The position numbers and the translations under genes were made by a program. A model generated the notes under the pieces. That model did not search any database. It was given only the letters and a program-made list of their open reading frames with translations, and was not told the DNA's origin. A stretch of DNA of 64,000 nucleotides, taken from contig QPGO01000134.1 of the NCBI GenBank assembly GCA_008632985.1, forward strand, positions 124,001-188,000, read 5' to 3'. Positions 7,386 through 34,000 of the stretch are shown piece by piece (the stretch's first letter is position 1; every line of letters starts with the position of its first letter). The DNA is from Psammoneis japonica. Lineage: Eukaryota.

Positions 7386-7557
7386 GGTACTGCGTATACG
7401 GTACGTCAAACGGATGCTCGATCGGTATGTGTGAAACTATAACGATAACTATAGAGTTTTGTTATCACTTATGCTGTAAATTTCCTCACAAAAGATTCGT
7501 TCTACAGCATTGGGAGTCGTTCACGCCGGTAATAAGAACGTTGAGATCATCTCAAAC

Positions 7558-8442: not shown

Positions 8443-8715
8443 TGTGGCGGCGCGGCCTTTGCCTTGGCCCCCCACGAAGAGACTGATTTAACAGCTCAAG
8501 TGCGACTAAGAACAAAGAATAAATCCTCCAAAAAACACTCCGTCAAAGATTCAAAATAACAAAGGAACAAAAGCAATCCTTCATCACAGCTTTTCTTCTC
8601 TCTTTGTCATCTTAGGTCATCCCGCACTCTGAGCCTGTCAGGGGCGGGCGGTGTGCGTGCAGGACAGCCAGACGGGCTTTGCTTAGCTGTGGGTCGGTGA
8701 ATGAAAGCGGGTGGC

Positions 8716-11700
8716 GGGCATCGACGAAAGCCCCCTACCGATGGAAGATGGACCAATCAGAACGCTTCATTCTAAGAATACACGTTGCAATACTTAGGGC
8801 TTTCTGAAAGAATACACATCATCATTACTTAACGATCAATGCAACACAGACACAGCCACCTCGGTTCATCCATCTCAGACGGATGCGCCACAGTCTGAGC
8901 ACTGGCGCTCTGACAAAGACACCACACACAAAATTCAAACTCCTCCCGTCTTTTTTCATCTCACTCATCATCAGCACCGACCTGTACAAGAGAGTTCTGA
9001 GAGAAGGAATTGCAGCAGAATGGAGAAGTGTTTCTCCCATAAGCTTCCCAGCACCATGGGTGTTCAGTCTCAGACTCGAAAGGCAGCCACGAAAAAAGCA
9101 AAGGAGAGCGAGCTTTTTCTGGAATCGCCAAGTTGTCGGGGAAAAACATGCCTCGGTTTACAACATCACCGGCGGCGGAGGCAGAATCACAAATTCTGAC
9201 TCTACCAAACAGTCACACTACTCAAGAAAAAGTTGTTGAGTGCAAAAGGTGCAAACAAGGGCCCTCCTGCAAAAAGGGTCATGACACGAGCTGCCCAAAA
9301 TCCATCTGCCATGGAAAGAATGTGAGTGCCGAGCGAAACGCGGCTATCCATCGCTTCATTGCTAGTAACGCAAGAAAGAACGCAAAAAAGCTACCAGGTT
9401 GTCAGGCCCCAACTAAGGAAGGTGTGGAGGCACTGCTCCACAATGGCACCAGGGCTTCAAAAAACAACAAGCCATCTGCAACGACCGTCTCGTCGCCGAC
9501 TGCTGCTGCCAACGCCACTGCCAACGCTACTGCTGCTACCATCAGCACCGTCACGTCGAACAGCATGGAGCATTCTGGCAACATTGTTGAAGAAGATCCT
9601 CTCTCTAGAGAGGTGCTCAAGAGAGAGATTCGGAAACGAATTGAAACATGTAAAAAAAAGAAGATTCCTTGTCCTGCACCCATTCAGGCTTTGATTTTGT
9701 ACCTTCTGGACTTGTGTCCATCTCGGTTTCATGCGGACTCGAATGAGATCATGGGCGGAGAGGTGAATGCCAAGAAACTAAATGGTGTCAGAAGAATTTT
9801 CCTTCCGGTGCCATGTCATTTACAGTGCCACGTGATGACACAACCAAAACTCCCGACAACCTCTACAGTGAGATTGAAGGCGTTACAATCCATTTGCTCC
9901 GCTGGGAATTGAACTTCATTGGCATGTTTTTGCCATGTGTCGATGGATGTGATGACGGCGAGATGACACATCAGCAGTTTGACATCAAGAAGGAGTGTTC
10001 ACCGACTCCAGTGTTGAAAGTTAGTGGCACCACTGATTGGACAAGCTCAATGCTCTACAAGTGCAACAAATGTGGCTGTGAATGCAAGGCGAACGATCCC
10101 AAGCTAATTAAGAAGCTGCCGAGGCCTCTACAAACAAGCTGTCCCATGGATCTACGACATGCAGCCGCGAATCTGTCTTTCACCTGTCGCTCGAAACGTC
10201 ACAACATGTGGACCATGCTGTGAAGAAGTGCAGCAATGGTGATGATGTGTCTGCTTTTCTTCATCAACAAAGAGGCGAGACTTTTGTTGATAAGAGGAGG
10301 GTTGCTGTTCTTTGTTAAAAGATGCTGGCGGAGGGAATGCGACGGGTTTGTCGGTGTTCAAGGATTGGGTCGGTCGCTGTGGACCCACTGGACAAAATGC
10401 AAGAGACATGTGTGATTTTGTCCGGCAATCAAACCTTGCCGAGACCGGAACAAGCGACAACATTCGGCACACGAGGGAAATGCAATCCGTTGGTTGTCGC
10501 ATCAGTGTTGCGTCCGACCACACTTTTGACCAAATGAAGAATTACAAAGACAACAACGGCAAGGGACTCTTCACCATGGCCACAGAGACTGGAGAGATTG
10601 GTGCAGCTGTGGCAGTGCCAACATTGGAAACAAAAGACTGTGCGCATGCAGCTGAACAGTTTGCGAGGCGTCCAAATGTCAAACCTCAAGTGCATTGCTC
10701 TGATGCTTGGCCCAACAAGGAAGAGTTTTGGAAGCAAATTTTTGGTCAGGACATTGCATGCAGGCTTGGTCTTTGGCACTGGACAAACCGCATCATTCGG
10801 ACTTTACGAGGCACTCACATTGATTGCTGTCGTGCGGTTCGTGATTTAAAGGATTGCGTCCGGCACAACGATGAATCCGACGAGGCAAAGGCAGTTGATG
10901 CTCTTGTCTTTGGGAAACTTGGCGGGAAGAAGAACACGACGGAAGAAATTGAGGAAATCAAGAACAGCAAGAAGTGGAGCAACTACAAGAAGTACATTCG
11001 AAGGTGGGCTTGCCCACTCGAAACACAGAACAAGCATCTGGAATCTTGGTTCGATCGGCATGAGTGCTCTGCATCTCCCAGCGCAGCAGAAGCTGGCGGA
11101 CGGTGTGACCCAGACTCTGGGAAGCCGCTTTTTACGGAAGATGCAAAGCCAGCGGTTGAAAACGCAAAATTGTCGGCTCGTGGACTCAATGAGCCGCTGC
11201 CACGTGAAGACTCACACAGAGTTGTCAAGCCTTCAAAATGGTCCAAGTGCAAGCTCGACACGTTTGTGACAACCACTGGCACGGAATCAAAGCTTGAAAA
11301 GTGTCACCATGTCGTCAAGCATTTTGGAAACACTGGTTCAAGATCCTCTCTGACAGATGCACTGTGCCTTGCAGGAACGTGTGAATGCAACATGTCAATG
11401 TGAGAGCGTGTCCGAACAGACGAACTGATGGCTGACGAGCGCGCCAAGATTCCGCACGCCTTTGAGGCGTTCCTGCTTTTCTCAACCACAGCAAGCTCGA
11501 CTGCATCAACAAGCTGGCAGAGAAAGCAGGAGCACCCCATCCTGTGCATGGGAATGTCGAAGAACTAAAAGAAGACAATGGTGAGCGGCATTTTTCAGCT
11601 TGCCCGGAGCAATTGGAACGCGTGAGAGAGCAGCTCGAAATGAGAAGTGCTGCAACCGGCGCAGCAGCAGCAGCATCCGGAAAAAAATCTGACAGATGCA

Positions 11701-12440
11701 TGTGCAACAAGTGTGGCACAAGAAACCCACATTCAACCCGTTCTAACCCAATGGCAAGTGTGGAGAATCCACACAAAAGAAAATCCATGTCTCAACAACC
11801 GCCGCCGTCTGAGGAGCCGCGCGCGAAAAAAGTGAAACCTTTGAATTTGCAAGAGGTCGTTCCACCAAGACAGCTGCCACCAGCGCCGATTGCACCATGC
11901 CCCGTTCCATGTTCTGTTCCATGTTGCACTCCGATTCAAGTTGATCCCTTTTGGAACAGTGTGCCAACAGTTTTGCCGCTGTTGCAGATGCCGCCGAATC
12001 TGCAGTCGGATCTGAACCAAAAATGCTGCTGTTGCCGAGCGAGGGAATTCCATCTTTCAAAAACAAACTTGTTGGGGGTGGCTGCTCGAGGAAGAGCACC
12101 ACACGATGAACAGTGTTCATCAAAGCAGTCTCTGAATGTAGATTCATTGCTTGCCTTTTGATTCTAGCCCATGGCTGCATCTCGAATTGGCGCCGAGACA
12201 GAAGATGGGAAATGGGGGGCGGTGGCGCCCAAATAAAATCAACCGTGGAAATTTTTTATGCGCGATGGGCTTGTGATCTGCATCTTCAACGCCACGAAAA
12301 TGCGACAACACAGTGCACCTTGCACTCACTTCCGCCATTGCTGCGTTCTTCTCCTCTCTTCCTTCCTTCTCTCTTGTTGTTGCAGCAGCAACGGGGTCGC
12401 TTCGCTCCCCCTCTCCCCCCCTCTTCTTCCGTCGGCACCC
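8716..12440 (+). mobile_element. DNA transposon copy 1 (DUF6729-associated, MULE/IS256-like DDE transposase), decayed
   Basis: About 3.73-kb unit repeated at 12451-16176. Imperfect terminal inverted repeats GGGCATCGACGAAAG ... CTTCCGTCGGCACCC. Contains a broken transposase. Confidence 0.8.
9020..12161 (+). pseudogene. Transposase pseudogene, copy 1 (about 1040 codons when repaired)
   Basis: Fragments 9133-9912, 9813-10223, 10312-11403 and 11544-12161. Motif order SDHTF..TETGEI..(Y)SD..RLGLWHWTNRI..GTESKLEK(Y)H. Frameshifts and a TGA at 11401 where copy 2 has CAA. Confidence 0.75.
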
Positions 12441-12450
12441 CCCCATTTTC

Positions 12451-15400
12451 GGGCATCGACGAAAGCCCCCTGCCGATGGAAGATTGGACCAATCAGAGCG
12501 CTTCATTCCAAGAATGCACGTTGCAATGCTCGGGGCTTTCTAAAAGAATGCACATCATCATCACTTGACGATCAATGCAACACAGACACAGCCACCTCGG
12601 TTCATCCATCTCAGACGGATGTGCCACAGTCTGAGCACTGGCACTCTGACAAAGACACCACACACAAAATTCAAACTCCTCCCGTCTTTTTTTCATCTCA
12701 CTCATCATCAGTGCCAACCTGCACAAGAGAGTTCTGAGAGAAGGAATTGCAGCAGAATGGAGAAGTGTTTCTCCCATGAGCTTCCCAGCACCATGGGTGT
12801 TCAGTCTCAGACTCGAAAGGCAGCCACGAAAAAAGCAAAGGAGCGAGCTTTTTCTGGAGTTGCTAAGTTGTCGGGGAAAAACACGCCTCGGTTTACAACA
12901 TCACCGGCGGCGGAGGCAGAATCGCAAATTCTGACTCTGCCAAACAGTCGTGCTACTCAAGAAAAGGTTGTTGAGTGCAAAAGGTGCAAACAAGGGCCCT
13001 CCTACAAAAAGGGTCATGACACGAGCTGCCCAAAATCCATCTGCTGTGGAAAGAATGTGAGCACCGAGCGAAACGCGGCTGTCCATCGCTTCATTGCTGG
13101 CAACGCAAGAAAGAACGCAAAAAAGCTGCCGGGTTGTCAGGCCCCAACTGAGGAAGGCATGGAGGCACTGTTCTGCAATGGCACCAGGGCTTCAAAAAAC
13201 AACAAGCCATCTGCAACGACCGTCTCGTCGCCGACTGCCACTGCCAACGCCACTGCCAACGCTGCTGCTGCTGCCATCAGCACCATCACGTCGAATGGCA
13301 TGGAGCATTCTGGCAACATTGTTGAAGAAGATCCTCTCTCAGAGAGGTGCTCAAGAGAGAGATTCGGAAACGAATTGAAACATGTAAAAAAAAGAAGATT
13401 CCTTGTCCTGCACCCATTCAGGCTTTGATTTTGTGCCTTCTGGACTTGTGTCCATCTCGGTTTCATGCGGACTCAAATGAGATCATGGGCGGAGAGGTGG
13501 GTGCCAAGAAACTTAAATGGCATCAGAAGAATTTTCCTTCCGGCACCATGTCATTTACAGTGCCACGTGATGACACAACCAAAACTCCCGACAACCTCTA
13601 CAGCGAGATTGAAGGCGTTACAATCCATTTGCTCCGCTGGGAATTGAACTTCATTGGCACATTTTTGCCATGTGTCGATGGATGTGATGACGGCGAGATG
13701 ATGCATCAGCAGTTTGACATCAAGAAGGAGCATTCGCCGACTCCAGCATTGAAAGTTAGTGGCACTGCTGATTGGACAAGCTCAATGCTCTACAAGTGCA
13801 ACAAATGTGGCTGCAAATGCAAGGCGAACGATCCCAAGCTAATTAAGAAGCTGCCGAGGCCTCCACAAACAAGCCATCCCGTGGATCTACGATGTGCAGC
13901 CGCGAATCCGTCTTTTCACCTGTCGCTCGAAACGTCACGACATGTGGACCATGCCATGAAGAAGTGCAGCAATGGTGATGACATGTCTGCTTTTCTTCAT
14001 CAACAAAGAGGCGAGACTTTTGTTGATAAAGAGGAAAATTACCATTCTTTGTTAAAAGATGCTGGCGGAGGGAATGCGACGGGTTTGTCGGTGTTCGAGG
14101 ATTGGGTCGGTCGCCATGGACCCACTGGACAAAATGTGAGAGATGTGTGTGATTTTGTCGGCAATCAAACCTTGCCGAGACCGGAATGAGCGACAACATT
14201 CGGCACACGAGGGAAATGCAATCCGTTGGTTGTCGCATCAGTGTTGCGTCCGACCACACTTTTGACCAATCAAAGAATTGCAAAGACAACAACGGCAAGG
14301 GACTCTTCACCATGGCCACAGAGACTGGAGAGATTGGCACAGCTGCAGCAGTGCCAACATTGGAAACAAAAGACCATGCGCGTGCAGCTGAACAGTTTGC
14401 GAGGCGTCCAAATGTCAAACCTCAAGTGCATTGCTCTGATGCTTGGCCTGACAAGGAAGAGTTTTGGAAGCAAATTTTTGGTCAGGACATTGCATGCAGG
14501 CTTGGTCTTTGGCACTGGACAAACCGCATCATTCGGACTTTACGAGGCACTCACATTGATTGCCATCGTGCGGTTTGTGATTTAAAGGATTGCGTCCGGT
14601 GCAACGATGAATCCGACGAGGCGAAGGTAGTTGATGCTCTCATCTTTGGGAAACTTGGCGGGAAGAAGAACACGATGGAAGAAATTGAGGAAATCAAGAA
14701 CAGCAAGAAGTGGAACAACTGCAAGAAGTGCATTCGAAGGTGGACTTACCCACTCGAAACACAGAACAAGCATCTGGAATCTTGGTTCGATCGGCACAAG
14801 TGCTCTGCATCTCCCGGCGCGGCAGAAGCTGGCGGACGGTGTGACCCAGACTCTGGGAAGCCGCTTTTTACGGAAGATACAAAGCCAGCGGTTGAAAACG
14901 CAAAATTGTCGGCTCGTGGACTCAATGAGCCGCTGCCACGTGAAGACTTGTGCAGAGTTGTCAAGCCTTCAAAATGGTCCAAGTGCAAGCTCGACACGTT
15001 TGTAACAACCACTGGCACGGAATCAAAGCTTGAAAAGTGTCACCACATCGTCAAGCATTTTGGAAACACTGGTTCAAGATCCTCTCTGACAGATGCACTG
15101 TGCCTTGCAGGAATGTGTGAACACAACATGTCAATGCAAGAGCGTGTCCGAATGGACGAACTGACGGCTGACGAGCGCGCCAAGATTCCGCACGCCTTTC
15201 GAGGCATTCCCACTTTTCTCAACCACAGCAAGCTCGACTGCATCAACAAGCTGGCAGAGAAAGCAGGAGTGCCCCATCCTGTGCACAGGAATGTCGAAGA
15301 ACTAAAAGAAGACAATGGTGAGCGGCATTTTTCAGCTTGCCCGGAGCAATTAGAGCGCGTGAGAGAGCAGCTCGAAATGAGAAGTGCTGCAACCGGCGCA

Positions 15401-16176
15401 GCAGCAGCAGCATCCGGAAAAAAATCTGACAGATGCATGTGCAACAAGTGTGGCACAAGAAACCCATGTTCAACCCGTTCTAACCCAACAGCAAGTGTGG
15501 AGAATCCACACAAAAGAAAATCCAAGTCTCAACAACCGCAGCCGTCTGAGGAGCCGCGCGTGAAAAAAGTGAAACCTTGAATTTGCAAGAGGTCGTTCCA
15601 CCAAGACAGCTGCCACCAGTGCCGATTGCACCACACCCCGTTCCATGTTCTGTTCCATGTTGTACTCCGATTCAAGTCAATCCCTTTTGGAACAGTGTGC
15701 CAACAGTTTTGCCACTGTTGCAGATGCCGCCGAATCTGCAGTCGGATCTGAACCAAAAATGCTGCTGTTGCCGAGCGAGGGAATTCCATCTTTCAAAAAC
15801 AAACTTGTTGGGGGTGGCTGCTCGAGGAAGAGCACCACACGATGAACAGTGTTCATCAAAGCAGTCTCTAAATGTAGATTCATTGCTCACCTTTTGATTC
15901 TAGCCCATGGTTGCATCTCGAATTGGCGCCGAGACGGAAGATGGGAAATGGGGGGCGGTGGCGCCTAAATAAAATCAACCGTGGAAATTTTTTATGCGCG
16001 ACAGGCTTGTGATCTGCATCTTCAACGCCACAAAAATGCGACAACACAACGCACCTTGCACTCACTTCCGCCATTGCTGCGTTCTTCTCCTCTCTTCCTT
16101 CCTTCTCTCTTGTTGTTACAGCAGCAACGGGGTCGCTTCGCTCCCCCTCTCCCCCCCTCTTCTTCCGTCGGCACCC
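12451..16176 (+). mobile_element. DNA transposon copy 2, decayed; flanked on both sides by CCCCATTTTC
   Basis: Collinear with 8716-12440 over its full length, with the same terminal inverted repeats. CCCCATTTTC lies at 12441-12450 and about 16178-16187. Confidence 0.8.
12757..15897 (+). pseudogene. Transposase pseudogene, copy 2
   Basis: Fragments 12565-13428, 13347-14189, 14186-15580 and 15577-15897. Frameshifts fall at different positions from copy 1. Confidence 0.75.
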
Positions 16177-16289
16177 CCCCCATTTTCGGCGGGGGGGGTC
16201 ACGAGGGCACAGGACAGTTGTCCAGCTGGGGCTTTGATTGCAAAACTGATGCTTTGCAGGCCAAATTGAGAAAGTGTGGTGGTGGCAGG

Positions 16290-16451
16290 TGCAGTGTCTC
16301 GCACCCCATTTTTCTGACACACAGTGTCAATGAATCCATTAGACACAACGGAAGCCGTTGCAACGGGCTTCGCTGAAAGCGACCCTTGTTGCCTCGGTCT
16401 TTTGCTCACAATTTTGTTGTCACTAAAGTCTTTATCTCGTTAGACCTTGCA
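16290..16451 (+). repeat. 5' LTR
   Basis: TGCAGTGTCTCGCACCCC...GTTAGACCTTGCA. By my alignment it has 12 substitutions and no indels versus the 3' LTR. Confidence 0.95.
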
Positions 16452-16480
16452 CTGTAATTACAGTCGATTCAAAGAACTGG

Positions 16481-16696
16481 ATGGAGACTGGGAACAACAC
16501 AAACAAATTGACTGAACGTGAGAAAAGAGAACTACGCGCAAGAGCAGCAGTTTGGGCCATTGAGCACCAGAAACAAGTGCAACAGCGTAAACGACACGAG
16601 CAGAATTTGGCGAGCCGAGTGCATCATTTGGAGTCAAAGGTGGAGTCCCTGGAAAGGACCATTGAACAATTGCATTCCCTTTTTCATGATGAGTGA
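16481..16696 (+). CDS. Small coiled-coil ORF upstream of gag
   Basis: ATG-initiated 71 aa with a heptad pattern (LASRVHHLESKVESLERTIEQLHSL); overlaps the gag start. Confidence 0.45.
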   Translation: METGNNTNKLTEREKRELRARAAVWAIEHQKQVQQRKRHEQNLASRVHHLESKVESLERTIEQLHSLFHDE

Positions 16697-17906
16697 ATCG
16701 TTGAAGGAGCCTTGCACCAGCTGTGAAGCCAAATTTGAGCATTCTGACTTGGAGGACGTGAAATTGACCCAATCGCATGATGACGGCAGCACTCGTACAA
16801 AAAAGTGTCCGCGTTTTGATGGCACTCATGGCATTGAAGCATTGTCATTCGTTGAGGATCGTTTTTGTAAAATTGCTGTGAAACTGGAGCACACTGCTGG
16901 CGAGGAGTTGTTCGAAAATTTCGAGGAAGTGCTCGCGGATGCGGCAGAGGACAAATGGGCGAATTTGACCAACGCAATTGACGATGCCGACAAAACTGTC
17001 GAGCGTTTTGATCAGGAAATCAATCGTTTTTACTTGTCTCATTGTGACAATGAAGCGCGCGATGCGATGATTGAACATTTGCCAACTTTGAAAAAACCAC
17101 TCAAATCTGAAGTGCAGGCGCACGCGGATTGCATGGAAACCTTGATTCGGCACTCCAACAAACTTCCGGGAAATGCTCCTCAAGTCAACGAAGCTCAGAA
17201 GAAAAAGATGACATTCGACAGCTTCCCTCGTCCGTGGCGTGAGATGTGTGCTCGAGCAGGACGAGCGACAGCGAACGATGCTCTCGCTGAGATCATCAGT
17301 CACATGAACAACGAGAAATCTTTTGCTGACAAGAGTGGCAACAAGAAGCAGGACAAGAAGAGGAAAGGCAACAGTGCTTCGTCTCAAGCTTCAAGATGCT
17401 CTCGTGGCAACAGCGGTGGAACGGATCCAGAATTTAGATGCCCGGTGCACACGAATCACAACCACAAGTGGAAGGATTGCATTTTGAATCCAGAAAGCCA
17501 AAACTGTCGGCCGAGGTCCGACCGTGGCGGTCGTGGCGGAGGCCGTGGTGGAGGCCGAGGAAACTGCCAAGGCAGAGGACCCCAAGGTCGAGGCGGTCGT
17601 GGCAACTTCCAAGGTCGAGGCCGTGGCAATTGTGGCAATCAAGGAGGACATGGAGGCCGAGGTTGCGGCAATTGTGACAACTCCCAGAATTCTCAAGGGA
17701 ATGGATCCCATTGTCAAAATCAAAACGGCACCCAAGTCAACGGTGATGCCCAAGGCTGTGGAAATCCGGCTGGAGCAGCTCCTCCTGGTGGCTGGCAAAT
17801 GGAGTCGCACCATTTTGATCAAGGAGGGCCTCGTGAGATGCGAGGTGGAAATGGATGCGATCAGAACGGTCGCACCCATCAAGGCCAACGAAGTTGGCGT
17901 AATTGA
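16686..17906 (+). pseudogene. Gag-like ORF of the Gypsy element
   Basis: Long ORF with a CPVH-x4-H-x4-C zinc knuckle and an RGG-rich tail, lying between the 5' LTR and pol. Confidence 0.8.
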
Positions 17907-20900
17907 CAAGGGACGGAAGCACCTGAGTCAGAGCGTGTCGCTCAATCTTTTTGTGTTTCGTGCGATTGTGAAGAAAATGTGTGTTTTAATGTTGATGACA
18001 ATGTGGGAGACCTGATGGAATCTCATGCTGTGAATGAAGAAAAATTGGGCGGCGTTTTGGAGTGCGCTGTGCCAACCCCTAAAACTGCGACTCCTGAACC
18101 ATTGAATGTGGTGCCAACGACGTTGATGGCGGCGCGCACCATTCAAAATCAAGAGAGCAAGCGAGTGTTGCGCGTGTTGTTGGATTCAGGAGGTGCTGAC
18201 ACTCTTGTTCATTCTTGAGTTTTGCCGAAGGGAGCGAATCCGACCATGAACGATGAAGGACGGTTGAGTTTTCAGACGGCAGCCGGACGACATGAATCCT
18301 CCCGATGCGTTGTCATGAAGGACTTGACATTGCCAGAATTTGACAAGTCAAAACAAGTCGATGGCATTGCGGCTCAAGTTTTTGATGCCCCATGCAAGTG
18401 TGACACAATTTTGGGACAAGACTTTTTGTTGAAGGCTGGAATCGTGCTTGATTTTCGATTTGGAACAACAAAGTGGTTGGGAACGTCGATCCCAATGAAG
18501 CAATCCAATCATTGGAACTCAGTTCAGAATTGGTTGGACACACTGGAAGACGACGGAGAGGACGAAGACGATGAGGAAGCCTTCGGACAATCTTTTATGA
18601 TGGACGCCAAATGCGAGAAAGTGTCATCTGTGAAAGTGGCGCAAGCTCAAACTCACTTGACTCAAGAACAACGTGATGAACTGCAGGCAGTGCTTGAAAA
18701 GCATGAAACCCTCTTTGATGGAATGCTTGGCAAACACCCGCATGAGACTGTTCACTTGGAAGTTGATCCCAACGCTGTCCCCTTCCATTCTAAGGCTTGC
18801 GAAGTGTCCAAGAGGGATGAAGCCGTTTTTAAGAAAGAATTGCAGCATTTGTGTGATGTTGGCGTGCTGGAACCAGTGGGACCAACTGAATGGGCAGCCG
18901 GAACTTTTGTGACTCCCAAAAAGGATGGACGAGTTCGACGGGCATCCGATTTTCGAGAGTTGAACAAAGTGCTCAAGCGAAAGGTCCATCCTCTGCCGAT
19001 CATTCAAGACGTTATTCACCGACGCTCGGGATGCAAGCATTTGACCAAATTGGACCTCACTGTGTTTTATTGTCATGTCGAACTTGACGAAGAATCCAAG
19101 GATTTGTGTGCCATCGTCACTCCGTTTGGAAAATTTCGATGCTGTCGATTGGCCATGGGTTTGAAACCCTCTCCCGACATTGCTCAAGCCATCATTGAAA
19201 AAGTGGCAAACGGAGTCGATGTTGAAACTTACATCGATGACATTGCTCAATTTGATGATTCGTTTGATGCTCACATGCATCGACTTGATGAGCTGTCATC
19301 CAGACTAGAAGAGAACAACTTGAAAATTAACCCACTCAAGTGCGAATGGTGTGTCCGAGACGGATTTTTTAGGCCATTGGCTCACGCCTGCAGGAGTCCA
19401 ACCATGGAAGAAGAAAGTGGAAGCGGTGCTACGAATGCAACCACCTAAAACTGTGACGCAACTACGATCGTTTGTCGGTGCGGTGACTTGTTGTCGCAAC
19501 ATGTGGCCTCGTCGCTCACACGTGCTCGCTCCACTCACGAAGTTAACAGGCAAGAGCAAGTTGGAATGGACCCCTGAATGTCAACGAGCCTTTGAAGACA
19601 TGAAAACCTTGATGCTGGACGACACCCTTTGGGTCTACCCGGATCATGACAAGCCATTCCACATTTGTGCTGACTCTTCGGACTGTCAGATGGGAGCCGC
19701 AATTGTGCAAGACGGGAAACCAGTGGCTTGCTGGTCCCGAAAACTCAGCGCAGCACAACAGAACTGCTCTGCGATTGAAAAGGAATTGTTGGCGGTGGCA
19801 ATGTGTTTCAAAGAATTTCGGAGCATGTTGTTTGGAGCTGACTGCACTGTTTTTACGGACCACAAAAATCTCACCTTTCATGCGCTCAATTCTCAACGAG
19901 TTCTTAGGTGGCGACTCTTCTTGGAAGATTTTGCCCCAACTTTCGAGTGCGTTGATGGCAAAGACAACCTCTTGGCGGATTGTTTTTCAAGATTGCCGCG
20001 TGTGGACCCTCCTGTGGAAGGGAAGTGTGCTCCTGACAAGGGCAAACTGATTGATTTTAAGGCGATCGACCCTGCCATGCTGCCGCATGAAGAAGAACTG
20101 GATGACCAAAACCGTGTGTCTCATTTTTCCTGTCGTCGTGAAGAACCATCTCCATTTTACTCTTCTGTCGTGGACGACCCCGAATTGTGTGAATCATTTT
20201 TGAACTGTCCTTCTCTCGAGGAAATGCAAAACCCCACAACTGTGCAACGAATTCAAGAACACCAATTCGTCGACGTGGAGCTGAACAATGTGCGACAACA
20301 ATGTCCAGAACGCTTCGTGGTGAAATGTGTGAATCAGCGTCCTGCAATTTGTTGTCGTGCTCGACCGAATGATCTTCCAACTGCGTGGAAAATTTGTGTT
20401 CCAACGGTGTTGCTGCATGACATCATACGATGGCATCACAGGATTTTGGGACATGCAGGAGTGCACCGAATGCATTCCACTGTTGGCGCACATTTCTGTC
20501 ATCCTGCCCTTCGTCAATCCTGTGAAGGATTTCATTGTGCTGATTGTCAATGTTTGAAAACTTCAGGCCCTGGATGTGGGGACCTGCCTGAACGAGAAGC
20601 GCCTTTGTCACCATGGACGGAAGTTGCGGTTGATCTCATCGGTCCCTGGAAGATTGAAATTCAAAACCATGAAATCGAGTTCAACGCTTTGACTTGTGTT
20701 GACACTGTTTCGAATGTGACTGAACTCATTCGCATCGAAAACAAAACCTCGTCTCACATTGCCCAACAATTTGAAAATTGTTGGTTGTCTCGTTGTCCTT
20801 GTCCCAACCGTTGCATCCATGACAATGGTGGAGAATTCGTTGGAGAGGACTTCCAATTGCTGTTGCAACAAGCGGGAGTGGAAGACACTCCGACTGCGTC

Positions 20901-21400
20901 ACGAAATCCACAAGCCAATGTGGCATGCGAGCGCATGCATCAAACTGTTGGAAATGTCTTGCGCACTTTGCTTCATGTTTGTCCTCCACAGAATGTTGAG
21001 CAGGCCAATCAACTGGCGAACAATGCATTGGCAACCGCCATGCATGCAATGCGATGTGCGGTTTCTCGTGCTCTCAAGATTTCACCCGGTGCCATGGTTT
21101 TTCAACGTGACATGATTCTTGACTTGCCGGTCCTAGCCGATCTTGCTGCCATTCAAGAACACCGACAAGCAATTGTTGATGCGAATCTCCATCGAGCCAA
21201 CGCTAAACGCCGATCCTGCGATTTTCAAGTTGGTGGACACGTTCTACTCAAGTCTGTCGATCCCACCAAGCTCAAAACCACGAGCTCACAGTCCATGTCC
21301 CATCATTCAAGTGCACGCTAACGGCACGATTACGGTCCAACGTGCACCTCATGTGACAGAACGATTGAATGTTCGTCGCGTCGCACCGCATCGTACCTGA
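17907..21400 (+). pseudogene. Pol (protease, RT, RNase H, integrase), disrupted
   Basis: LLDSG protease, DFRELNK and YIDD (RT), ADSSD..EKELLA..TDHKNL (RNase H), H..LGHAG and VDLIGP..HDNGGEF..NPQAN..ERMH (integrase). TGA at 18216; frameshifts near 19350 and 21280. Confidence 0.92.
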
Positions 21401-21501
21401 GGTTGAGGGTTTTCTCCCCAACATTTGGGTTTCCCTTCTATCCTCATCCATTGGAATTTGAAAATTTTTGAGTCCCGCATGATTCTCGACACTCGAATCA
21501 T

Positions 21502-21513
21502 GGAAGGGAAGAG
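21502..21513 (+). other. Polypurine tract
   Basis: GGAAGGGAAGAG immediately 5' of the 3' LTR. Confidence 0.85.
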
Positions 21514-21675
21514 TGCAGTGTCTCGCACCCCATTTTTCTGACACACAGTGTCAATGAATCTATTGGATGTAACGGAAGCCGTTGCAACGGGCTTCGCTGA
21601 AAGCGACCCTCGTCACCTCGGTCTTTCGCTCACAATTTTGTTGTCGCCAAAGTCTTTATCTTGTTAGACCTTGCA
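21514..21675 (+). repeat. 3' LTR
   Basis: Direct repeat of 16290-16451, followed by the TSD GCAGG. Confidence 0.95.
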
Positions 21676-21680
21676 GCAGG

Positions 21681-23700
21681 CAGTGCCACACTGGGAGGAG
21701 CAGGCTGATTTCCCCATGCCACAGAGGTGGAAAAAATTGAGCAGCCAGGGGGCGCTTGTCAGGGCGAGTGAGAAAGGCATGTGAGTGGAAGCAAATGTTG
21801 AGGAGAAAGACGTTCTGGAAGACCCAGTTGTCCAAGGGAGCTCAGAGGGCAATGACAGGACAGCTCCATTGGAAGTGCCAAGCAAAAATTGATGGGCAAA
21901 CCAACCAAGGGCAAAATGAGGCAGGTGATCAGCACGGGGGGTGTGAGAATCAGCAGGGTGCACACCTTCTGGCATGATGGCTGGGGTGGTCGGCAAGAAT
22001 GACAGAGCCAAATTGTGTGTCACAATTCCTGCACAACATTCTCTTGGCCTTCTTGTGGTGTGCCTCAGCAAGTGGGTTGGCAGAAGGGGCAGGCAAGCCA
22101 GGAGAGCAGGAAATGGATGGGGCCACCAGGGGGGTTGGCGGCTGGCAACATGTCGAGACAGCAAGAAGTGTGTGTGTGTGAGGTGCTGGGGGGGCTCCTG
22201 CAGAGGCAGCTGGAGTGAGCTGTGCACCAACACCAGCAGGGTGTGCTTGTGGGACAATGAGGGAGCAGGCTGGAGAGCTTTTTGTGGTGCGCAGGCTGTG
22301 GTGCACACCCAGCAAAGGAGTTGCTGCAGCAAATGCCAGAGAGATGGGCAACAGCAGTCTGTCAAAGGTTGGTGAAAAAGAGGCTGTCTTAGATGTCATT
22401 TTGAAAGCACAGACTTGTGTCTGATGGAGCAGCAGCAAAAAGAATGTTCCCCATGTTGGTTGGCTTGTCCCATGCAGAAGCACACTGCACCGATGTTGGC
22501 CAAGGGGGTCTTGGGTGGGAAGGCCCAGCTTGCACCACAACACGGAGCAAAAATGGGTCAGAGATTGGCTGTTGTCACTCAACAGAGCAAGCCAGAGAAT
22601 GAAGCAGATGGCTTGCAAGTGTGGCAACAGCAGAGGCTGCATCAGGGCTTCTTGAGCAATGTGCTGGGAGTGGTGAGAGTGCACCCTTTGCCAGAGTGTG
22701 CATGGGGGGGCAGGACAAAGGCAACAAGGAGCTGCCAACTCTGCCATGTGGCAGAACCTGCTGGACATTTTGGAGGTTTTTTGACATTTTCCTTTGCCGC
22801 ACACAGCACTCAAATGACATGAATGGAGCTGGCATGGCACAAAATGCATCTGACACTTGGCTCCTTTTAGATGACACCACAGGACACATTTCAGAACAAC
22901 AGTGGTGGCCAGGATGAGGAGGTTCAATGCCATCTTTTCTTTGGGCAGGGAGTTTTTGGGCAAATGAGCTGGCACCACACCCAGCACCTTGCAGTTTGAC
23001 AAGAAGTTGCTGTTGGTTGCTGGTTTCTCTGCACACACATTGGGGGCAATGAGACTGTGCCATCACATGCACAAAATGAAGCAATGAAGAACAGCAGGCA
23101 GCACCAGCAGCCAAGCTTTGCTTTGCTGGTGGCAGCTCTGACAAAAACTCCAAATCTTTTTCTCACCTCCTTTTGGATGCATTTGTTTTGCCTTCACCTC
23201 TTGAAGGGCAGCACAGAATGAGGCACGACTCTGCATGTGCAGTGAACTGGAGAAAGTGGCACCACAAGACAAGTGTTTGGGGGTGGGATCTGCCTGCTGG
23301 TTTTGTCAGCTCAGCAGACATGCTGCAAAAAGGTGACTTGTTCATGTCGTCTGCCGCAAAGTGGTGTGGATCTCCTGTCTCCTGCACGAAAACAGTGGCA
23401 CCCATGGCAGTTTTCTGGGTTGGTTGGGGTGTGACCACTGTTCCAAGCTTCTAGAATGTCTGACAGTTTTGCCCCCCTGAGGATGATTGGGTCTGGTAAA
23501 AAAGAGAAGATCATCATCCAACTTGCGCTACAATGATGCGCAATTCTTGAAACAACACGTGTGTGGCAGAAAGAGTGCTGCGCCAGGTGATGGAAACCAA
23601 TGACTTGCAAGCTTCTTGTCCAGAGCACCACCGGTGCAACAGCAACCTGTTGAGCTCCGGCGGCCAAAACACTGATAGTGCATCGACTTATTTTATCAAT
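21681..23700. other. Heavily decayed relic sequence (TpA- and CpG-depleted); probably continues at 16188-16289 on the other side of the Gypsy insertion
   Basis: Only two TA dinucleotides found by eye in 21681-23450, few CG, and Tyr-free spurious ORFs on both strands. No recognisable protein family. Confidence 0.6.
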
Positions 23701-23772
23701 CAATAATTTCATGGTTGTGTCCATGTCCGATTATGAATCTCTACGGAAAACTACATTGGAACTTCGAACTCG

Positions 23773-24828
23773 TCACCGCGATGTCGCATCCCGCTCACTT
23801 TTTTTTTCTGACTGAGGGTGTTGCCGTCCGCCTCCATGCTGAGCACGCTTCTCTCTCTGTAGTAAAAAGTCTGGAGGACAAGGAGCTCCTCCTCCCTCCT
23901 CGTTGGGTTCCCGTCGTTTTCGATTCCAACCGCCAACAGAGTCGGGCGAAATGATCGCCATGAGGGCTCGAGGAGGATTTTGTGATATGTGTTGGGCCAT
24001 GACTCGAGCGGCCTCTTGCTCGACTCGATGCAGCTCGGACTGAACAACCAGCGCATCGCTTTCACGGTGGAGTCTTTTCTTTTGCGAAACAACAAACTGA
24101 GACAAAATGAAAGATGAACATTGTCATGGTGAGGCTTCAAGCTATTGTGTTGTCTTGCGTACGACTATCTTGCACAGCAAACACCTTACCTTTCCAATTT
24201 CGTTCAAATCATGATTTGATATATGCTGTTTACTAGTCACACATACTTCTCCCCCCAGTTGCCGCGATAACCGACACGAACCCTCATCATTTGATTCTAG
24301 GCAAACAAATAAAAAGTGAGAAGCATTGCATAAGTTGGGCATACGAGCTACTTCAAAGGATATATTTGCTTACGCACCCATTATATGTAAACATGGCCAG
24401 CCGCTTATCAGTTCCTCGTCATCTTCTAATATTGCGCTGCCTCGTATAAAAATTCCAAACTTGAGACCCTGAACTCCAATCAACGGGAGAAGCGATGCAA
24501 TGGCAGCGCCTCGCCCAACTCCCAGTATTCCCGCAAATGGCATCGACTTCCACGTCTGTTGAAGATGTAATAATGATGCATCCAGACCGGTATATTGTTT
24601 CTCATTTTGTTCCCACCAAATTCGACGTGGCGGTCCGTTGTCGTCGTCTTGTTGTGGATGCTCCTCCTGTCGAATCAGGGGACTGTTGATGTATACCAAT
24701 TCCACGCCGTGTTTGTCATACAGTCGTTCATCGAGGACCTTGATTGACTGATGGAGCTCCAATGCGTTTGACTCCGAATCATGTAAACACAGGATGCGTA
24801 GCAATACATTGCCATTGACAGTCGCCAT
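23773..24828 (-). CDS. FSH1/OVCA2-like serine hydrolase family protein (three exons)
   Basis: LRILCLH, PFAGILGVGRGAAIA, LKFGIFIRG and PCLHIMG. Predicted splicing through a short exon near 24190-24298 to the 23773-24105 frame. The usual GFSQG serine is replaced (GVGRG). Confidence 0.65.
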
Positions 24829-25294
24829 GGTGAGCGTTACTTATTTTTTATTTTTTTGAGAAGCGCGAGAGCGGAGAGTGACACGACCTGGATCGCGCTC
24901 GCGCTTTCGCGAGATCCCGTCCGTCCATCCTCACGCGCCGCCAGGCGACTCCTCTGCTGGCAAGAAAACACTGATGCGGTATGTTTCGGACAAGACAACA
25001 AACGACCAAAATATTTTCGAAATGATTTATATACCGCCTTGAATAATTAGTCATTCAACTTACGTCACCTCGTTTCAAACTCGACAATCGTCAGCGAATG
25101 GAAACATCGGAGAAAGGAATCGTCGAGACTGACTATTTCAAATCATACGAAATAAATGTACCATTTTCACGTGAGAAAGCTTTTCGTATTCAAATCTGGA
25201 TTCCCTCTTTCGCCAACAAGGGCAAACGACGAGATGCAAGGCGGCGATCGATCGGCACTCGGGTGTCACAGTTGGAAAGAAAGAAAAGTCAACC

Positions 25295-31039: not shown

Positions 31040-34000
31040 GGGCTCCTGAGGTCCCAGCCTGGACGAGGAGGATGCAGCATTTTCCTCTCTGTCTAGTCTA
31101 GTGTGATCCAGCTTTTGATTCCAAATTGCTTGACACAATGCCCACCATTGGCCTGCTTTTGGGCCAATGCAGCTCCCTTCACTGTGAAATTAAAAAAAAC
31201 CCTGCGAAGGGTGGAACATGACAATCAGCACAGCCAACTGGGAGAAAATTGAAATTTGGTGGAGCAGAAGAACGAGTGACAAAGACTGGCAAACTGTGAC
31301 ACGGCATGCCATGCTCACCCAGTGACAGTCAATGACGACCCTGCCCTCCCTGTCAGCAATGTGCGGTGGGTGCACGCCCAACCACCATCCAAACGAGTGA
31401 GTTGAGAAATTTGGTGGCACAAAGGAAAGACTGGGTGTTCTTGACAAGGCAAGCCATCTTGTCCAGTGGAGAAATTGTTGACGGTGCCTGTCCCTGCATC
31501 AAAACCTGTCTGTTGGAGGCCATCAAGTCTCCTGTAGAAACTTGACACTGGGTGGAGCTTTCATGCTCAAGCATTTGCGCAACTTTGCACCACTTTCTCC
31601 AAACCGTGCGCCTCTGACCGCATTGTGCACTGCAGCACTGCACCAAAGCTGGATTGAAATGATGCGCTGCAGGGCCAAATTGAAACTGAACACAGGCAGC
31701 AAATTTGTTGCCCAAGCTGGGAAGGGGGGGCAGGGAGGGGACACTCAATGGTTCCTGTGCATCAAGGCAAAAGCACATGAGACACACTGGTTCAAGGTGT
31801 TGGGGGCAATGTCTCTGCCAGTGAGTCACACAGGAGTGAGCACATTGCAAGTCACACAAATGGCTTCCACTCATGGGGTGGCATGCTGCACCCACCTGAT
31901 GATGCTTTGGGGGGGACAAAGTGCCCCCACCTTTTTGCACATGCCACCATGGTCGAAAACACAACAGAGAGAAGCAGGAGGTTCTGTCCTTTCATTCACT
32001 GTGGGTTGCTGGTTTTTAGGATTTGCAGCAGGTGCCCCTGTTCATTCAACAGGAGCACTGTGTTGAATTTGATGAAAAACAAAAATCAGATTCTTTGCCC
32101 AAATGACAAAAGGAGCACCGCTGTGGGGACAAACAACTCGCCCCAGCTCCAAAGGCACAACCTCACACTGCTGAGCTGGCTGCAGCAATGTTGATGCTCT
32201 TTTGTCAAGCACTGTGGTGTCTTGCACACATGCATTTTTGCATGACTTTGGTGGAATTTTGTGTCATTTTGCAGCACAATTGTTGGGAGATCCACTCAAC
32301 AACTTGTGACTTTTTTGTGCAAAGAAGTTCTTTGATGTTCCAAGGGTGGCCACCAGTCACCACTTTTTTGGCTTGAATTTGGCCAAATGGTGGCTCATGT
32401 TTTGCAGATTTTTCTGCACTTTACAGAGCTTGTCTGCCATGGGACTTGCATCAAAATTGTGTGCTCCCCCTTGCATGCCAAGTGATCAACATGAGATGTG
32501 ATTGTCCCATGGCAGAAGGCTGCATTTTTGAGAAACATCATGATTGCTGTCATTGTCATTCCTTGGCTGCGGTGACGGATGTTCTTGTTTTCATGCATGG
32601 TCAGGTGCAAATGTTGACAATTTCAATCTTGCCCTCTTTGTCAGTGGTGAGCAGTGCACATGAGTTGAGAAATGGTGTGATGGCTGCTCAGAAGAAAAAC
32701 TGGACATCTTTGACAAGCCAAGCCATCTTCTCCAGCAGAGAGACATTGTTGTTGGTGTTCCTGCCACCCCTGTGTCAAAACCTGTTCATCAAAGGCAGTT
32801 GCTCAATCTGCCAGAAAAGCCAAATGTTGGAAAACCAACACTGGAGCACTGAAGCTAAAACATTTGAGCTGTTTTCTCCATGCTGAAAAACATGCAACAC
32901 CCAGGCAAGCCAAGATGATTGTGGCACACATGGTGTGACAGCAGCCAAAGGGGGCTTTTGTCATGAGTGAGAGAGTGTGCGTGCATGTCTGACATCTGCA
33001 ACCCCCCTTGGGCACAACCCATGTTGGGATTTGCACCACAACTGCAGCTGAGAAGGTGCAATGTGATCCAATGTGTGGGGCACTGGAGACATTGGCTGCA
33101 CATGGCGCATGTGGCATTTCCCAAAAGTGCTGTGGCTGACCACCAGCCATGCCCAAAGCAATGGCTGCAATGCAAAGGGCCGTCAAGTGACCACACACCT
33201 CTGTGTGGCAGAGTGTTGCAAGAGACCTTCTGTGGCAACTGTCCCAAAGGCAGCTTTTGACAGACTTGATGCCACGGTTTGCATGTGCAACACATCAAAT
33301 TCATCACATGCCCTGCTCCCCAGATCTGTGACAAAGACATTTGCTTTGTGCTCAAAACCATGTTAAGAGTGCCCTGGGAAAGGCATCAGGTGCTCTGCTT
33401 TGAACCATGCTTCTCCCAAATGTTGTGAATGCATGACAGCTTTTGTCAAGAGGACATGGCAGGTGCATGGCTCACTTTCTTTGTTTCCCTTGTGCTTGCA
33501 AGTTGACATGGCCATCCCACCATCTCTGTGACTGCCCCCTTTGTGGTGCAAAAGGCCGTCCTGCCATCTCTGTGACTGCCCCCCATTGTGGTGCGAAAGG
33601 CTGCCTCTTGCAAAGTCAAAGGTCCTGACACCTGTCCGGGGATCAAGCCATGCAAAGGTGGCAAAAATTGCTGTGGGCACCAGCAAAAGTGGGAGTTGCT
33701 GCCCTTGTTTGTCAAGGTGCATGGGCTGAAGTTTCTGGGGCTGGATGCATCATGAGGCACAACACGCTGCCAACACATGATGTTGTGGCTCTCTTCCTCC
33801 TTTGTGAGATCGGGGTGGAAGGCATTGAGACTCGAAATGTGCCTCAGTGCATTGAGTTGGGCCACAAGCTTGTCCCAAAAACTCTTTGCACTTTCCTTGT
33901 CAGTCATGTGGATGTGAATCTTGTCATTGAGAGAACAGCAGATGAAAAACCATCATTTTTCAGGGCACAGTTCTTGCCCCTCAATCAGAAAAAGTGACGT

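Follow-up and report, generated by a model that had tools for sequence, protein, structure and literature searches.

Why should transposons in a chromosome lose nearly every TpA dinucleotide while the host genes beside them use it normally? We address this question in a single 64-kb stretch of DNA (hereafter, the window), from whose sequence we infer the mutational process. An earlier note had claimed that TpA is nearly gone over positions 8716..23460 and normal in the flanks, and the counts bear this out: TpA O/E ranges from 0.04 to 0.28 per 1-kb window at 9001-23001 and from 0.35 to 0.76 in host windows, with zero overlap between island (n = 16, maximum 0.28) and host (n = 45, minimum 0.35) values (Mann-Whitney p = 1.9e-9). 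By region (Table 1), the dinucleotide O/E (rhoTA) was 0.127 in the Gypsy element (16289-21675), as against 0.61, 0.52 and 0.55 in three host blocks. The loss of TpA in the islands is thereby confirmed as real and strong. From host to island DNA, only four of the 16 dinucleotides shift by >12% (TA x0.23, CG x0.66, TG x1.37 and CA x1.26). Island GC (0.49-0.53) exceeds that of host DNA (0.46-0.48). The island borders are sharp on the right side (<=250 bp) and form an edge gradient on the left. The host genes of the window are intron-poor.

Table 1. Features of the TpA-poor islands (positions in the window; rho, dinucleotide O/E by region).
Feature	Position	Strand	Evidence or property
DNA transposon copy 1, 3.74 kb	8716..12455	+	tandem repeat; DDE transposase; rhoTA 0.20
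DNA transposon copy 2	12456..16210	+	tandem repeat; rhoTA 0.16
Transposase remnant ORF, 464 aa (copy 2)	14186-15580	+	homologues and fold
Target-site duplication GCAGG, 5 bp, left	16285..16289		read in sequence
Gypsy 5' LTR, TG...CA ends	16290..16451	+	LTR repeat
gag-like ORF, RGG-rich tail, Tyr 0.43%	16518..17906	+	ORF
Protease/reverse-transcriptase ORF	18222..19448	+	Pfam RVT_1, E 2.8e-18
RNase H-integrase ORF, 656 aa, 2 Tyr	19351..21321	+	Pfam RT_RNaseH_2, RT_RNaseH, rve, Integrase_H2C2
Gypsy 3' LTR, polypurine tract before	21514..21675	+	LTR repeat
Target-site duplication GCAGG, right	21676..21680		read in sequence
Island with TpA and CpG both lost	21750..23500		rhoTA 0.041 (4 TA left), rhoCG 0.128
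Second island	31050..34000 (about)		rhoTA 0.042 (8 TA), rhoCG 0.167

The direction of the change can be read from tyrosine codons, for which a conversion of conserved Tyr to Cys or His had been proposed. Across three ORFs of two unrelated elements, 35 columns in which relatives conserve Tyr hold Cys (20), His (7), other residues (5) or Tyr (3) in the window. At 12 Tyr columns conserved at 80% or more in 29 relatives (window: Cys 8, His 2, Phe 1, Tyr 1), 11/12 are replaced, versus 24/266 conserved non-Tyr columns (Fisher p = 2.9e-10). In the protease/reverse-transcriptase ORF, relatives conserve Tyr at 11 columns, of which six hold Cys, three His and two Tyr in the window. In the 464-aa transposase ORF all nine (9/9) are replaced, leaving 0.2% Tyr against 2.7-6.6% in relatives. 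A separate set of related proteins (n = 120) has a median of 3.6% Tyr, versus 0.3-0.5% in the window. The peptide motifs cited in the earlier note (KVHPLP, SGCKHLTKLD, FGKFRCCRL, DSSDCQMG, PVACWSRKL, QQNCSAIEKE and WLSRCPCP) were all found, and its Tyr count for the RNase H-integrase ORF was correct. At Thr>Ala, Asn>Asp and Ile>Val changes, the preceding base is T in 4/4, 1/1 and 2/3 cases, respectively, as in TA>TG changes spanning two codons. As read from these columns, the direction of change is TA>TG/CA, and both outcomes are seen in the window. The split between Cys and His by preceding base (13:2 vs 7:5) was not significant (p = 0.19).

The first of the two elements is present as a tandem pair, to which a DDE family tblastn match extends over 9873-15550 (+). 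The 464-aa ORF of copy 2 has 14 homologues, with no Pfam domain; the structure most similar to its AlphaFold model (pLDDT 75.3) is that of the ISCth4 transposase (Z 12.2 over 227 aligned residues). The 3.7-kb element is thus predicted to encode a DDE transposase fold, closest to IS256/Mutator-like enzymes, in line with the claim that a retrotransposon and a DNA transposon were both hit. The two copies differ at 190 positions, 182 of them transitions, and 167 of the 190 lie within aligned TA/CG/TG/CA (YpR) dinucleotides (TA/TG 26, TA/CA 9, CA/TG doublets 49, CA/CG 20, CG/TG 12, CG/TA 1), while the 1982 positions outside YpR dinucleotides hold just 23. Each of the 49 CA/TG doublets points to one ancestral TA that took different routes in the two copies, one ending as TG and the other as CA; less than one doublet is expected from CpG, since CG/CG pairs number 161 and CG/x pairs 32. 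The pair counts would put roughly 150-200 TAs in their common ancestor, and the aligned sister copies demonstrably mutated independently. The CG<->TG/CA differences between the copies are not polarisable, and a weaker A>G change at CpA is compatible with them. Within the first 1000 columns, copy 1 (outer, adjoining host DNA) keeps 23 TA versus 6 in copy 2 (inner).

The Gypsy element, whose 5-bp target-site duplication is intact on both sides, allows the comparison of two LTRs from one insertion: they have 12 differences, 12/12 of which fall in TA/CG/TG/CA dinucleotides. Its gag-like ORF gave no Pfam match. Other copies in the genome number ~55 for the Gypsy element and ~10 for the transposon, and the 40 listed of ~1400 variant rows over these copies were uninformative. 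Differences between LTRs and between tandem copies keep to these dinucleotides, a DDE fold is predicted, and relatives bear Tyr and are normal in TpA; on these three grounds, we concur with the proposal of a chromosomal mutator that would turn A:T into G:C at TpA on both strands, after insertion.

Could the elements instead have been TpA-poor on arrival (through horizontal transfer from a TpA-poor donor, or because UpA in RNA was selected against), without a mutator at work in this genome? TpA is indeed mildly low throughout (host rho 0.55), yet Gypsy relatives at 80 oriented metagenome loci have a median rhoTA of 0.74 and a minimum of 0.45, against which the window Gypsy stands far lower, and the destruction of catalytically conserved Tyr residues argues for an absence of purifying selection. 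As the sister copies and LTRs also diverged at TA sites after their separation in this genome, and the tandem ancestor appears to have been well supplied with TAs, we assign this account an almost negligible probability. Transposon transcripts hyperedited A-to-I (by an ADAR-like enzyme, or by ADAT acting on dsRNA) and written back into the genome through reverse transcription would agree with the 5' U favoured by A-to-I editors (bioRxiv 10.64898/2026.01.13.699255) and with the excess of sense-strand A>G over T>C at Tyr codons (20 : 7). Still, this RNA-level origin is hardly credible: the DDE DNA transposon is equally depleted without an RNA intermediate, antisense-strand (CA) outcomes are common (the CA/TG doublets included), TpA-derived sites have diverged between the paired LTRs of one insertion, TA>TG changes are neither all LTR-shared nor sense-only, the most depleted region is a single-copy, non-coding island, and intensity drops toward the island edge, a positional effect.

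The earlier note had further described the loss as repeat-restricted, and this part is not borne out, because one island is single-copy: the depth of 21616-25000 in run X1 (54.6) equals that of its flanks. Together with the less-mutated outer 1 kb of the tandem pair, this suggests a chromatin domain or foreign DNA as the target, and not RIP-like homology sensing. No Pfam or other homology was found for island 21750-23500, and the sole homology hint for the second island (TG and CA about 1.8-1.9) is a Copia-gag match (E 0.016). This second island, as well as the strong CpG loss in both, had been omitted from the earlier note. A base-calling artefact, in which a true TA with a modified base is misread, has only a slim chance of being right: k-mer contigs (unique depth ~55) recover the single-copy island together with its flanks on either side, differing at 0 and 2 positions, one run X1 contig covering 21616-25000 with 2, although run X1 is not independent, its sample being the same as the assembly's likely source. 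An artefact would, moreover, need the opposite G/C choice at homologous tandem-copy sites 49 times, and a context-dependent sparing of TAs.

This context dependence shows in the counts. A/G differences per purine site are most frequent where the preceding base is T (0.053), followed by C (0.034), A (0.009) and G (0.002), and a 5' pyrimidine precedes 110/140 of the surviving TAs versus 698/1757 in host DNA (p = 2e-19). Relative to the family baseline, TA survival in the Gypsy element is 0.32 for YTAR, 0.19 for YTAY, 0.08 for RTAR and 0.04 for RTAY. Hardly any TA in ATA/TAT remains, and YTAR loses the least. The values for YTAY and RTAR amount to a strand asymmetry. One of the agents suggested earlier, error-prone patch resynthesis of Pol-eta type (WA motif) in the repair of deaminated 5mC, fits poorly, and we regard it, along with GC-biased gene conversion between repeats, as very unlikely. 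Either can drive A:T to G:C, and the disappearance of CpG from two islands makes methylation of the transposable elements probable, but Pol eta makes transversions too, whereas nearly all differences between the tandem copies are transitions, and an A that follows another A hardly changes. Furthermore, about 83% of the TpA of the Gypsy element is gone, yet its CpG stands at the family level (rhoCG 0.92 vs 0.97 in its relatives), which indicates a process independent of CpG repair. Gene conversion would homogenise copies and lacks TpA specificity, and one of the islands is single-copy.

We thus consider a DNA-level, post-insertion, TpA-specific and island-confined mutational process very probable; its direction, its TpA specificity, its action on both strands and after insertion, and its sharp confinement to islands are established at the level of sequence comparison. 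After insertion, T:A pairs of TpA would be converted to C:G, with the affected strand deciding between TpG and CpA, only in the chromosomal DNA of transposon or foreign-DNA islands, at a rate there roughly a hundred times that of the local background; targeting would follow a mark of silent chromatin or of foreign DNA, not repeat homology. A second, slower process, CpG>TpG/CpA decay (presumably 5mC deamination), probably ran alongside, and would be complete only in the two CpG-poor islands (21750-23500 and 31050-34000), which are presumably older. This decay, familiar from methylated transposons (rho 0.13-0.17 in the two islands, ~0.77 in the DDE transposon), is unable to remove TpA, and the window Gypsy lost TpA but kept CpG.

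As for the agent, our leading guess, a tentative one, is a DNA adenine deaminase that may prefer the A of 5'-TA(Y)-3', the resulting hypoxanthine being read as G. ADAR/ADAT A-to-I editing is alike in that A is read as G with U/T as 5' neighbour (the target of tRNA A34 deaminases follows U33), and unlike in that the known roles of these enzymes are on RNA, whereas the change in the window is in DNA. We know of no established natural, locus-targeted DNA adenine deaminase. For amphioxus and trypanosomes, an activity of ADAT2 on DNA is reported (cited in bioRxiv 10.64898/2026.01.13.699255).

An unlikely alternative, differing in agent only and leaving the DNA-level, island-confined process the same, is thymine modification, whereby a TET/JBP-type dioxygenase would turn the T of TpA in silenced DNA to 5hmU (perhaps oxidised on to 5-formyl-U), and mispairing with G or misrepair would give T>C. 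Because TpA is self-complementary, the TG/CA outcomes are the same, and indistinguishable in sequence from those of adenine deamination. In favour of this agent, a dedicated enzyme in dinoflagellates makes 5hmU and thereby silences transposons (according to the available part of PMC11572971). Dinoflagellate 5hmU may also prefer TpA; a text search of PMC11071213 found neither 'TpA' nor 'dinucleotide'. Against it, 5hmU:A pairs are not strongly mutagenic; in this organism, both 5hmU and its enzyme are hypothetical, and adenine deamination is favoured by the authors of work on Bigelowiella natans (bioRxiv 10.64898/2026.01.13.699255).

Among other known systems, fungal RIP resembles the process proposed here in producing only transitions, in a dinucleotide context, on both strands of integrated DNA, and in inactivating transposons whose sister copies mutate independently. 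It differs in that its C>T changes at CpA create TpA and turn DNA AT-rich, while the window loses TpA and gains GC, and in that it requires duplication, whereas one of the islands hit here is single-copy. APOBEC3 editing of cDNA is likewise a deaminase-driven hypermutation (the deaminase of the window being putative) by which retroelements are inactivated, again within a dinucleotide context; its C>U changes fall on the minus strand of cDNA that is not yet integrated, giving strand-biased G>A in retroelements only, unlike the A:T>G:C changes seen here on both strands, after integration, and in a DNA transposon too.

The closest precedent comes from B. natans, where integrated NCLDV and virophage DNA is hypermutated: of 231 mutations that mutation-accumulation lines gained in the two viral regions, 230 were A>G or T>C changes, on TpA according to the text (Mettrop et al., bioRxiv 10.64898/2026.01.13.699255). 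By analogy, the process in the window appears to be of the same kind. Going by the available part of that preprint, both share nearly exclusive A>G/T>C change at TpA only (TpG or CpA by strand), restriction to foreign DNA with normal neighbours, an affected single-copy region, and the TpA-poor, CpA+TpG-rich clusters left behind, with RT and DDE Pfams enriched in TpA-poor CDS. They differ in that mutations were measured there and are deduced from sequence here, in the targets (viral insertions versus Gypsy, DDE transposon and two further islands), in depth (rho 0.45 in the NCLDV region versus 0.04-0.20), and in the CpG loss of two islands. The flank dependence (ATA/TAT lost, YTAR spared) and edge gradient are seen in the window and go unmentioned in the preprint's abstract, Results and Discussion. 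The organism is also another one (the best database match of a window gene is 81% identical, and no match carried the name B. natans). The earlier note knew of no description in diatoms, and our literature search found none there either; in view of this preprint, though, the process can no longer be called undescribed overall. The interpretation in the earlier note is, as a whole, partly supported. The mutation pattern has so far been reported only once before, in an unrelated alga, and the window looks like a second, deeper case, with transposons as the targets.

TpA is nearly absent from 8716-23500, as the earlier note had claimed: in 1-kb windows its observed/expected ratio ranges from 0.04 to 0.28 within this island, versus 0.35-0.76 in host DNA, and the two sets do not overlap (16 island windows, maximum 0.28; 45 host windows, minimum 0.35; Mann-Whitney p = 1.9e-9). 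Among the 16 dinucleotides, a deviation of more than 12% from the host is seen only for TA (x0.23), CG (x0.66), TG (x1.37) and CA (x1.26). The loss stays within integrated DNA of foreign or mobile origin, its boundaries coinciding with element ends and the host flanks being normal, and it recurs in a second island outside the finding of the earlier note (8 TA and 30 CG in 2951 bases; TG and CA at approximately 1.8-1.9 times expectation). The peptide motifs quoted in that note were all recovered from the window, together with the 656-aa ORF that holds 2 Tyr. GC content is higher in the islands than in the host, and a process that erases TpA raises local GC. Stop codons are affected as well (TAA 3.0 and TAG 2.2 per kb in the islands vs 7.9 and 7.5 per kb in host DNA); their removal leaves dead elements with numerous long reading frames in both orientations (7000-25000 overlaps 24 ORFs of at least 150 aa), so that gene finders will call spurious genes.

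Coordinates of the features discussed, with observed/expected TpA and CpG for the compared blocks
Feature	Position	Strand	TpA obs/exp	CpG obs/exp
Transposon copy 1	8716-12455		0.20	~0.77
Transposon copy 2	12456-16210		0.16	~0.77
Gypsy	16289-21675		0.127	0.92
TpA-poor island part	21750-23500		0.041	0.13
Second island	31050-34000		0.042	0.17
Three host blocks			0.61, 0.52, 0.55	0.94-0.99
Tandem pair of the 3.74-kb element	8716-16210
DDE-family similarity	9873-15550	+
Transposase ORF (464 aa)	14186-15580
Ty3/Gypsy element	16290-21675
FSH1-type serine hydrolase gene	23707-24846	-
Segments skipped by the X2 contig	24097-24189, 24297-24377
Diverged direct repeats	27561-29587
Thioredoxin-domain ORF	28492-29460	-
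Copia-gag hint	33446-33952	-
Selenocysteine-specific elongation factor	35618-38061	-
GTP_EFTU	37186-38061
Domains III/IV	35618-37015

The island begins with two head-to-tail copies (~95% identical) of a 3.74-kb element, the ends of which appear by eye to be only imperfectly inverted (no inverted repeat pair of at least 60 nt was detected). None of the 14 metagenome homologues of its transposase ORF (P0222-P0235) carries a Pfam domain. In a wide VIA-align search, the AlphaFold model of this ORF (pLDDT 75.3) was best matched by the transposase of ISCth4 (IS256-family; Z 12.2, rmsd 3.8, 227 residues aligned), followed by retroviral integrases and the Hermes and P-element transposases at Z ~8-9, while Foldseek returned no PDB match at E <= 0.001 (weak matches only, E 5e-3). 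The predicted structure has an RNase H-like catalytic fold in which D85, D144 and E283 show little or no variation. Judging by this ISCth4-like fold, the element is a DDE DNA transposon from an as yet unannotated family, which looks to be a Mutator-like lineage of eukaryotes. The adjoining Ty3/Gypsy element has 162-nt LTRs with TG..CA ends, a polypurine tract, an intact 5-bp target-site duplication (GCAGG) and the pol domain order RT-RNaseH-integrase (Pfam); it has 642 relatives at E <= 0.001 (best identity 64%), with more distant ones (46% identity) in Nitzschia inconspicua, on which the tentative assignment of the window to a diatom would be based. Contig depth in the sequencing run X1 (~55 for unique sequence) reaches ~500-750 over the transposon and ~2500-3600 over the Gypsy, equivalent to ~10 and ~55 copies.

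No recognisable coding homology was found by Pfam, HMMER or tblastn in the rightmost island part or in the second island. Even at E <= 5, the only Pfam hints in the two were a hAT dimerisation domain (E 0.44) and, in the second island, a Copia gag (E 0.016); a full HMMER search with the 370-aa island ORF retrieved a single low-complexity protein, and 40 Gypsy and DDE relatives used as tblastn queries gave no match in either. We rejected the assignment of either island to a DNA transposon or a virus.

The direction of change was read from alignments of the window ORFs with 29 relatives of RNase H-integrase, 27 of RT and 13 of the transposase, in columns where Tyr is at least 60% conserved. Out of 35 such columns, 20 hold Cys, 7 His and 5 another residue, and only 3 keep Tyr (in the same order: 9, 3, 2 and 1 of 15 for RNase H-integrase; 6, 3, 0 and 2 of 11 for RT; 5, 1, 3 and 0 of 9 for the transposase). 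At an 80% threshold, RNase H-integrase has replaced 11 of 12 Tyr columns vs 24 of 266 other conserved columns (p = 2.9e-10). The Thr>Ala, Asn>Asp and Ile>Val replacements fit TpA across the codon boundary, as T precedes them in 4/4, 1/1 and 2/3 cases; one GTA>GCA change was also seen. An intrinsically TpA-poor composition is excluded by relatives with normal TpA: 80 oriented metagenome relatives of the Gypsy have a median TpA ratio of 0.74 (minimum 0.45; CpG 0.97), and 120 related proteins have a median Tyr content of 3.6%. With no inherent shortage of TpA in the family, the change ran from TA to TG and to CA, and in the Gypsy it took place without loss of CpG. Among the 120 proteins, a single Gypsy pol relative from a Logan assembly (P0026) is low in Tyr (1.48%) and raised in both Cys (3.6%) and His (4.1%), and may represent partial hypermutation of a copy from a different data set.

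Two pairs of sister sequences allowed the process to be followed after insertion. The LTRs of the Gypsy, flanked by the target-site duplication, differ at 12 positions, all of them in dinucleotides that interconvert among TA, CG, TG and CA. The tandem transposon copies show 190 differences (182 transitions), 167 of which lie in these four dinucleotides, the other 1982 aligned positions holding just 23. By type, we counted 26 TA/TG, 9 TA/CA, 20 CA/CG, 12 CG/TG and 1 CG/TA pairs, along with 49 doublets (CA in one copy facing TG in the other), each of which is a single ancestral TA (or CG) sent opposite ways in the two copies. Considering the 161 CG/CG vs 32 CG/x pairs, CpG would account for less than one doublet, from which we infer that almost all derive from TA. 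The 22 TA/TA, 35 TA/x and ~48 doublet pairs, with a comparable number of same-outcome pairs, then indicate ~150-200 TAs at copy separation, i.e., a normal TpA content. Approximately three quarters of the TAs were thus lost per copy against ~0.6% background divergence per copy, which would place the rate, as a rough estimate that varies with how many same-outcome pairs are assumed, ~100-fold above background. Read as internal clocks, the LTR and tandem pairs prove that the process acts on DNA in place and independently in sister copies. Together with the Tyr to Cys/His replacements, these differences bear out the proposal of a DNA-level A:T>G:C mutator that hits mobile elements at TpA; LTR-divergence dating of such hypermutated elements will be badly inflated. 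For a base-calling artefact, the choice between G and C would need to fall out differently in the two copies at 49 homologous sites; the X1 contigs, although drawn from the same sample as the likely assembly source, also contradict it. Error-prone resynthesis of the Pol-eta type also fits poorly, as 96% of the changes in the tandem pair are transitions, ApA is unaffected and the Gypsy lost TpA without CpG.

As to targeting, the right island boundary is sharp (within 250 bp), and on the left a gradient is apparent: the outermost 1 kb of transposon copy 1, adjoining the host, holds 23 TAs, and the corresponding stretch of copy 2, which lies inside the island, holds 6. The explanation that RNA editing of transposon transcripts was fixed by retrotransposition fails on this gradient, and equally because the DNA transposon is affected too, antisense-strand outcomes are abundant and the two LTRs of one Gypsy differ. 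The stretch 21616-25000 is single-copy in X1 at >=80% identity, and one contig covers it whole with 2 differences (one of them at position 22293, where the assembly has CA and the sole X1 contig CG). The proposed restriction to repeats is therefore not upheld: the edge gradient and the single-copy island favour a cue from the chromatin domain or from foreign DNA over RIP-like repeat sensing, although 21616-25000 could conceivably be a very old repeat, diverged past 80% identity. Fungal RIP targets duplicated sequence only, which would suit the multicopy Gypsy and DDE element but not this stretch, unless old copies have diverged further; its C>T changes at CpA also generate TpA and make the DNA AT-rich, the opposite of the direction seen here.

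The TAs that survive in the islands (n = 140) are biased in their flanks: 110 have a 5' pyrimidine and 10 a 3' T, vs 698 and 539 of 1757 host TAs (5'-base contrast, p = 2e-19). As a fraction of their density in the host, ATAT, GTAT and ATAG stand at 0 and ATA and TAT overall at 0.05, while TTAG, TTAC and TTAA reach 0.5-0.6 and CTAA 1.04. Measured against a family-specific baseline, TA survival in the Gypsy falls from YTAR (0.32) through YTAY (0.19) and RTAR (0.08) to RTAY (0.04). In the tandem pair a 5' pyrimidine accompanies 18 of 21 retained TA/TA pairs, and doublets have a 5' purine in 30/46 and a 3' pyrimidine in 34/48 cases, a contrast which shows that TA sites differ strongly in mutability. 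The outcomes at Tyr codons favour Cys over His (20:7, p = 0.019), at 13:2 after a pyrimidine and 7:5 after a purine (contrast not significant, p = 0.19); on the strength of the 13:2 ratio, RTA was rejected as the target motif in favour of TAY. The simplest reading of these contexts is that the edited base would be the A of 5'-TA(Y)-3' on either strand, with the YTAY/RTAR asymmetry and the non-significant contrast speaking against certainty. A/G differences per purine site are most frequent after T (0.053), followed by C (0.034), A (0.009) and G (0.002); the value after C stems from CpG decay or else from a weaker action on CpA, the CpG-linked changes being unpolarised. For strand assignment, trinucleotide gains were too confounded by CpG loss, and the 40 variants listed among ~1400 (22 of them outside TA, CG, TG and CA) are too selected for a spectrum. 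This flanking-base dependence provides a biochemical fingerprint against which candidate enzymes can be tested.

The host genes in the window have long, nearly intron-free ORFs, and Pfam annotated 27 further host ORFs as ordinary eukaryotic genes, including a triose-phosphate translocator. The 5'-nucleotidase gene has relatives at 75-81% identity, and none of its named database matches is from Bigelowiella natans; on this evidence and that of the ORFs, the window does not derive from B. natans. Over the FSH1-type serine hydrolase gene, a contig of the sequencing run X2 skips segments of 93 and 81 nt, which look like two short introns; being spliced across them, X2 looks like RNA, though not recorded so. 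Almost no X2 contigs fall on the islands, from which we draw no conclusion on expression. The selenocysteine-specific elongation factor extends over two ORFs, probably separated by an intron, and the organism presumably makes selenoproteins. The diverged direct repeats (three 226-nt and three 105-nt units, 63-75% identical) overlap the thioredoxin-domain ORF and are probably repeated protein domains.

Full-text literature searches returned no report of TpA hypermutation in diatoms. The claim that the phenomenon is undescribed nevertheless has to be given up, as a preprint on B. natans shows TpA hypermutation (Mettrop et al., bioRxiv 10.64898/2026.01.13.699255). There, 231 of 302 nuclear mutations in mutation-accumulation lines fell in integrated NCLDV and virophage sequences, 230 of the 231 being A>G or T>C and stated to fall on TpA; the de novo rate was ~1000x background, in only some lines; RT and DDE Pfams were over-represented among TpA-poor CDS; and the proposed agent is an ADAT2 homologue (bioRxiv 10.64898/2026.01.13.699255). 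The preprint mentions neither diatoms nor other species.

The window resembles B. natans in its A:T>G:C transitions (182/190 in the tandem pair; Cys or His in 20 and 7 of 35 Tyr columns), in the restriction of change to TpA>TpG/CpA (with the caveat that unpolarised CpG-linked changes are also present) and in a loss confined to mobile or foreign DNA amid normal host flanks. The rates differ in kind, as ~1000x was measured in culture and our ~100x would follow only indirectly from the tandem pair. Hence, the window is best filed as a further case of the process just described in B. natans, to which it adds transposons as clear targets, in-place and copy-independent action (from the LTR and tandem pairs), the flanking-base hierarchy, the edge gradient and the separation from CpG decay.

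With regard to the agent, modification of thymine (5hmU/5fU) is inseparable from adenine deamination by sequence alone; PMC11071213, searched for a TpA preference of 5hmU, yielded no passage on it. We raise, as a tentative and rather unlikely proposition, that TpA-directed DNA editing might be an ancient genome-defence arm of SAR-group protists (Rhizaria and the plastid-bearing, diatom-like lineage) that silences transposons and integrated viruses, run by a candidate ADAT/TadA-type tRNA-adenosine-deaminase paralogue recruited to silent chromatin. If the ADAT/TadA reading were true, the 5'-T-A-(Y) preference would reflect the U33-A34 geometry of the ancestral tRNA substrate. A mutator that erases TpA works opposite to all classical defence and decay processes (RIP, 5mC deamination, APOBEC), and has been reported once, in 2026, from one chlorarachniophyte. 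A second case, in another genome and directed at transposons, suggests that the process is widespread and not a curiosity.
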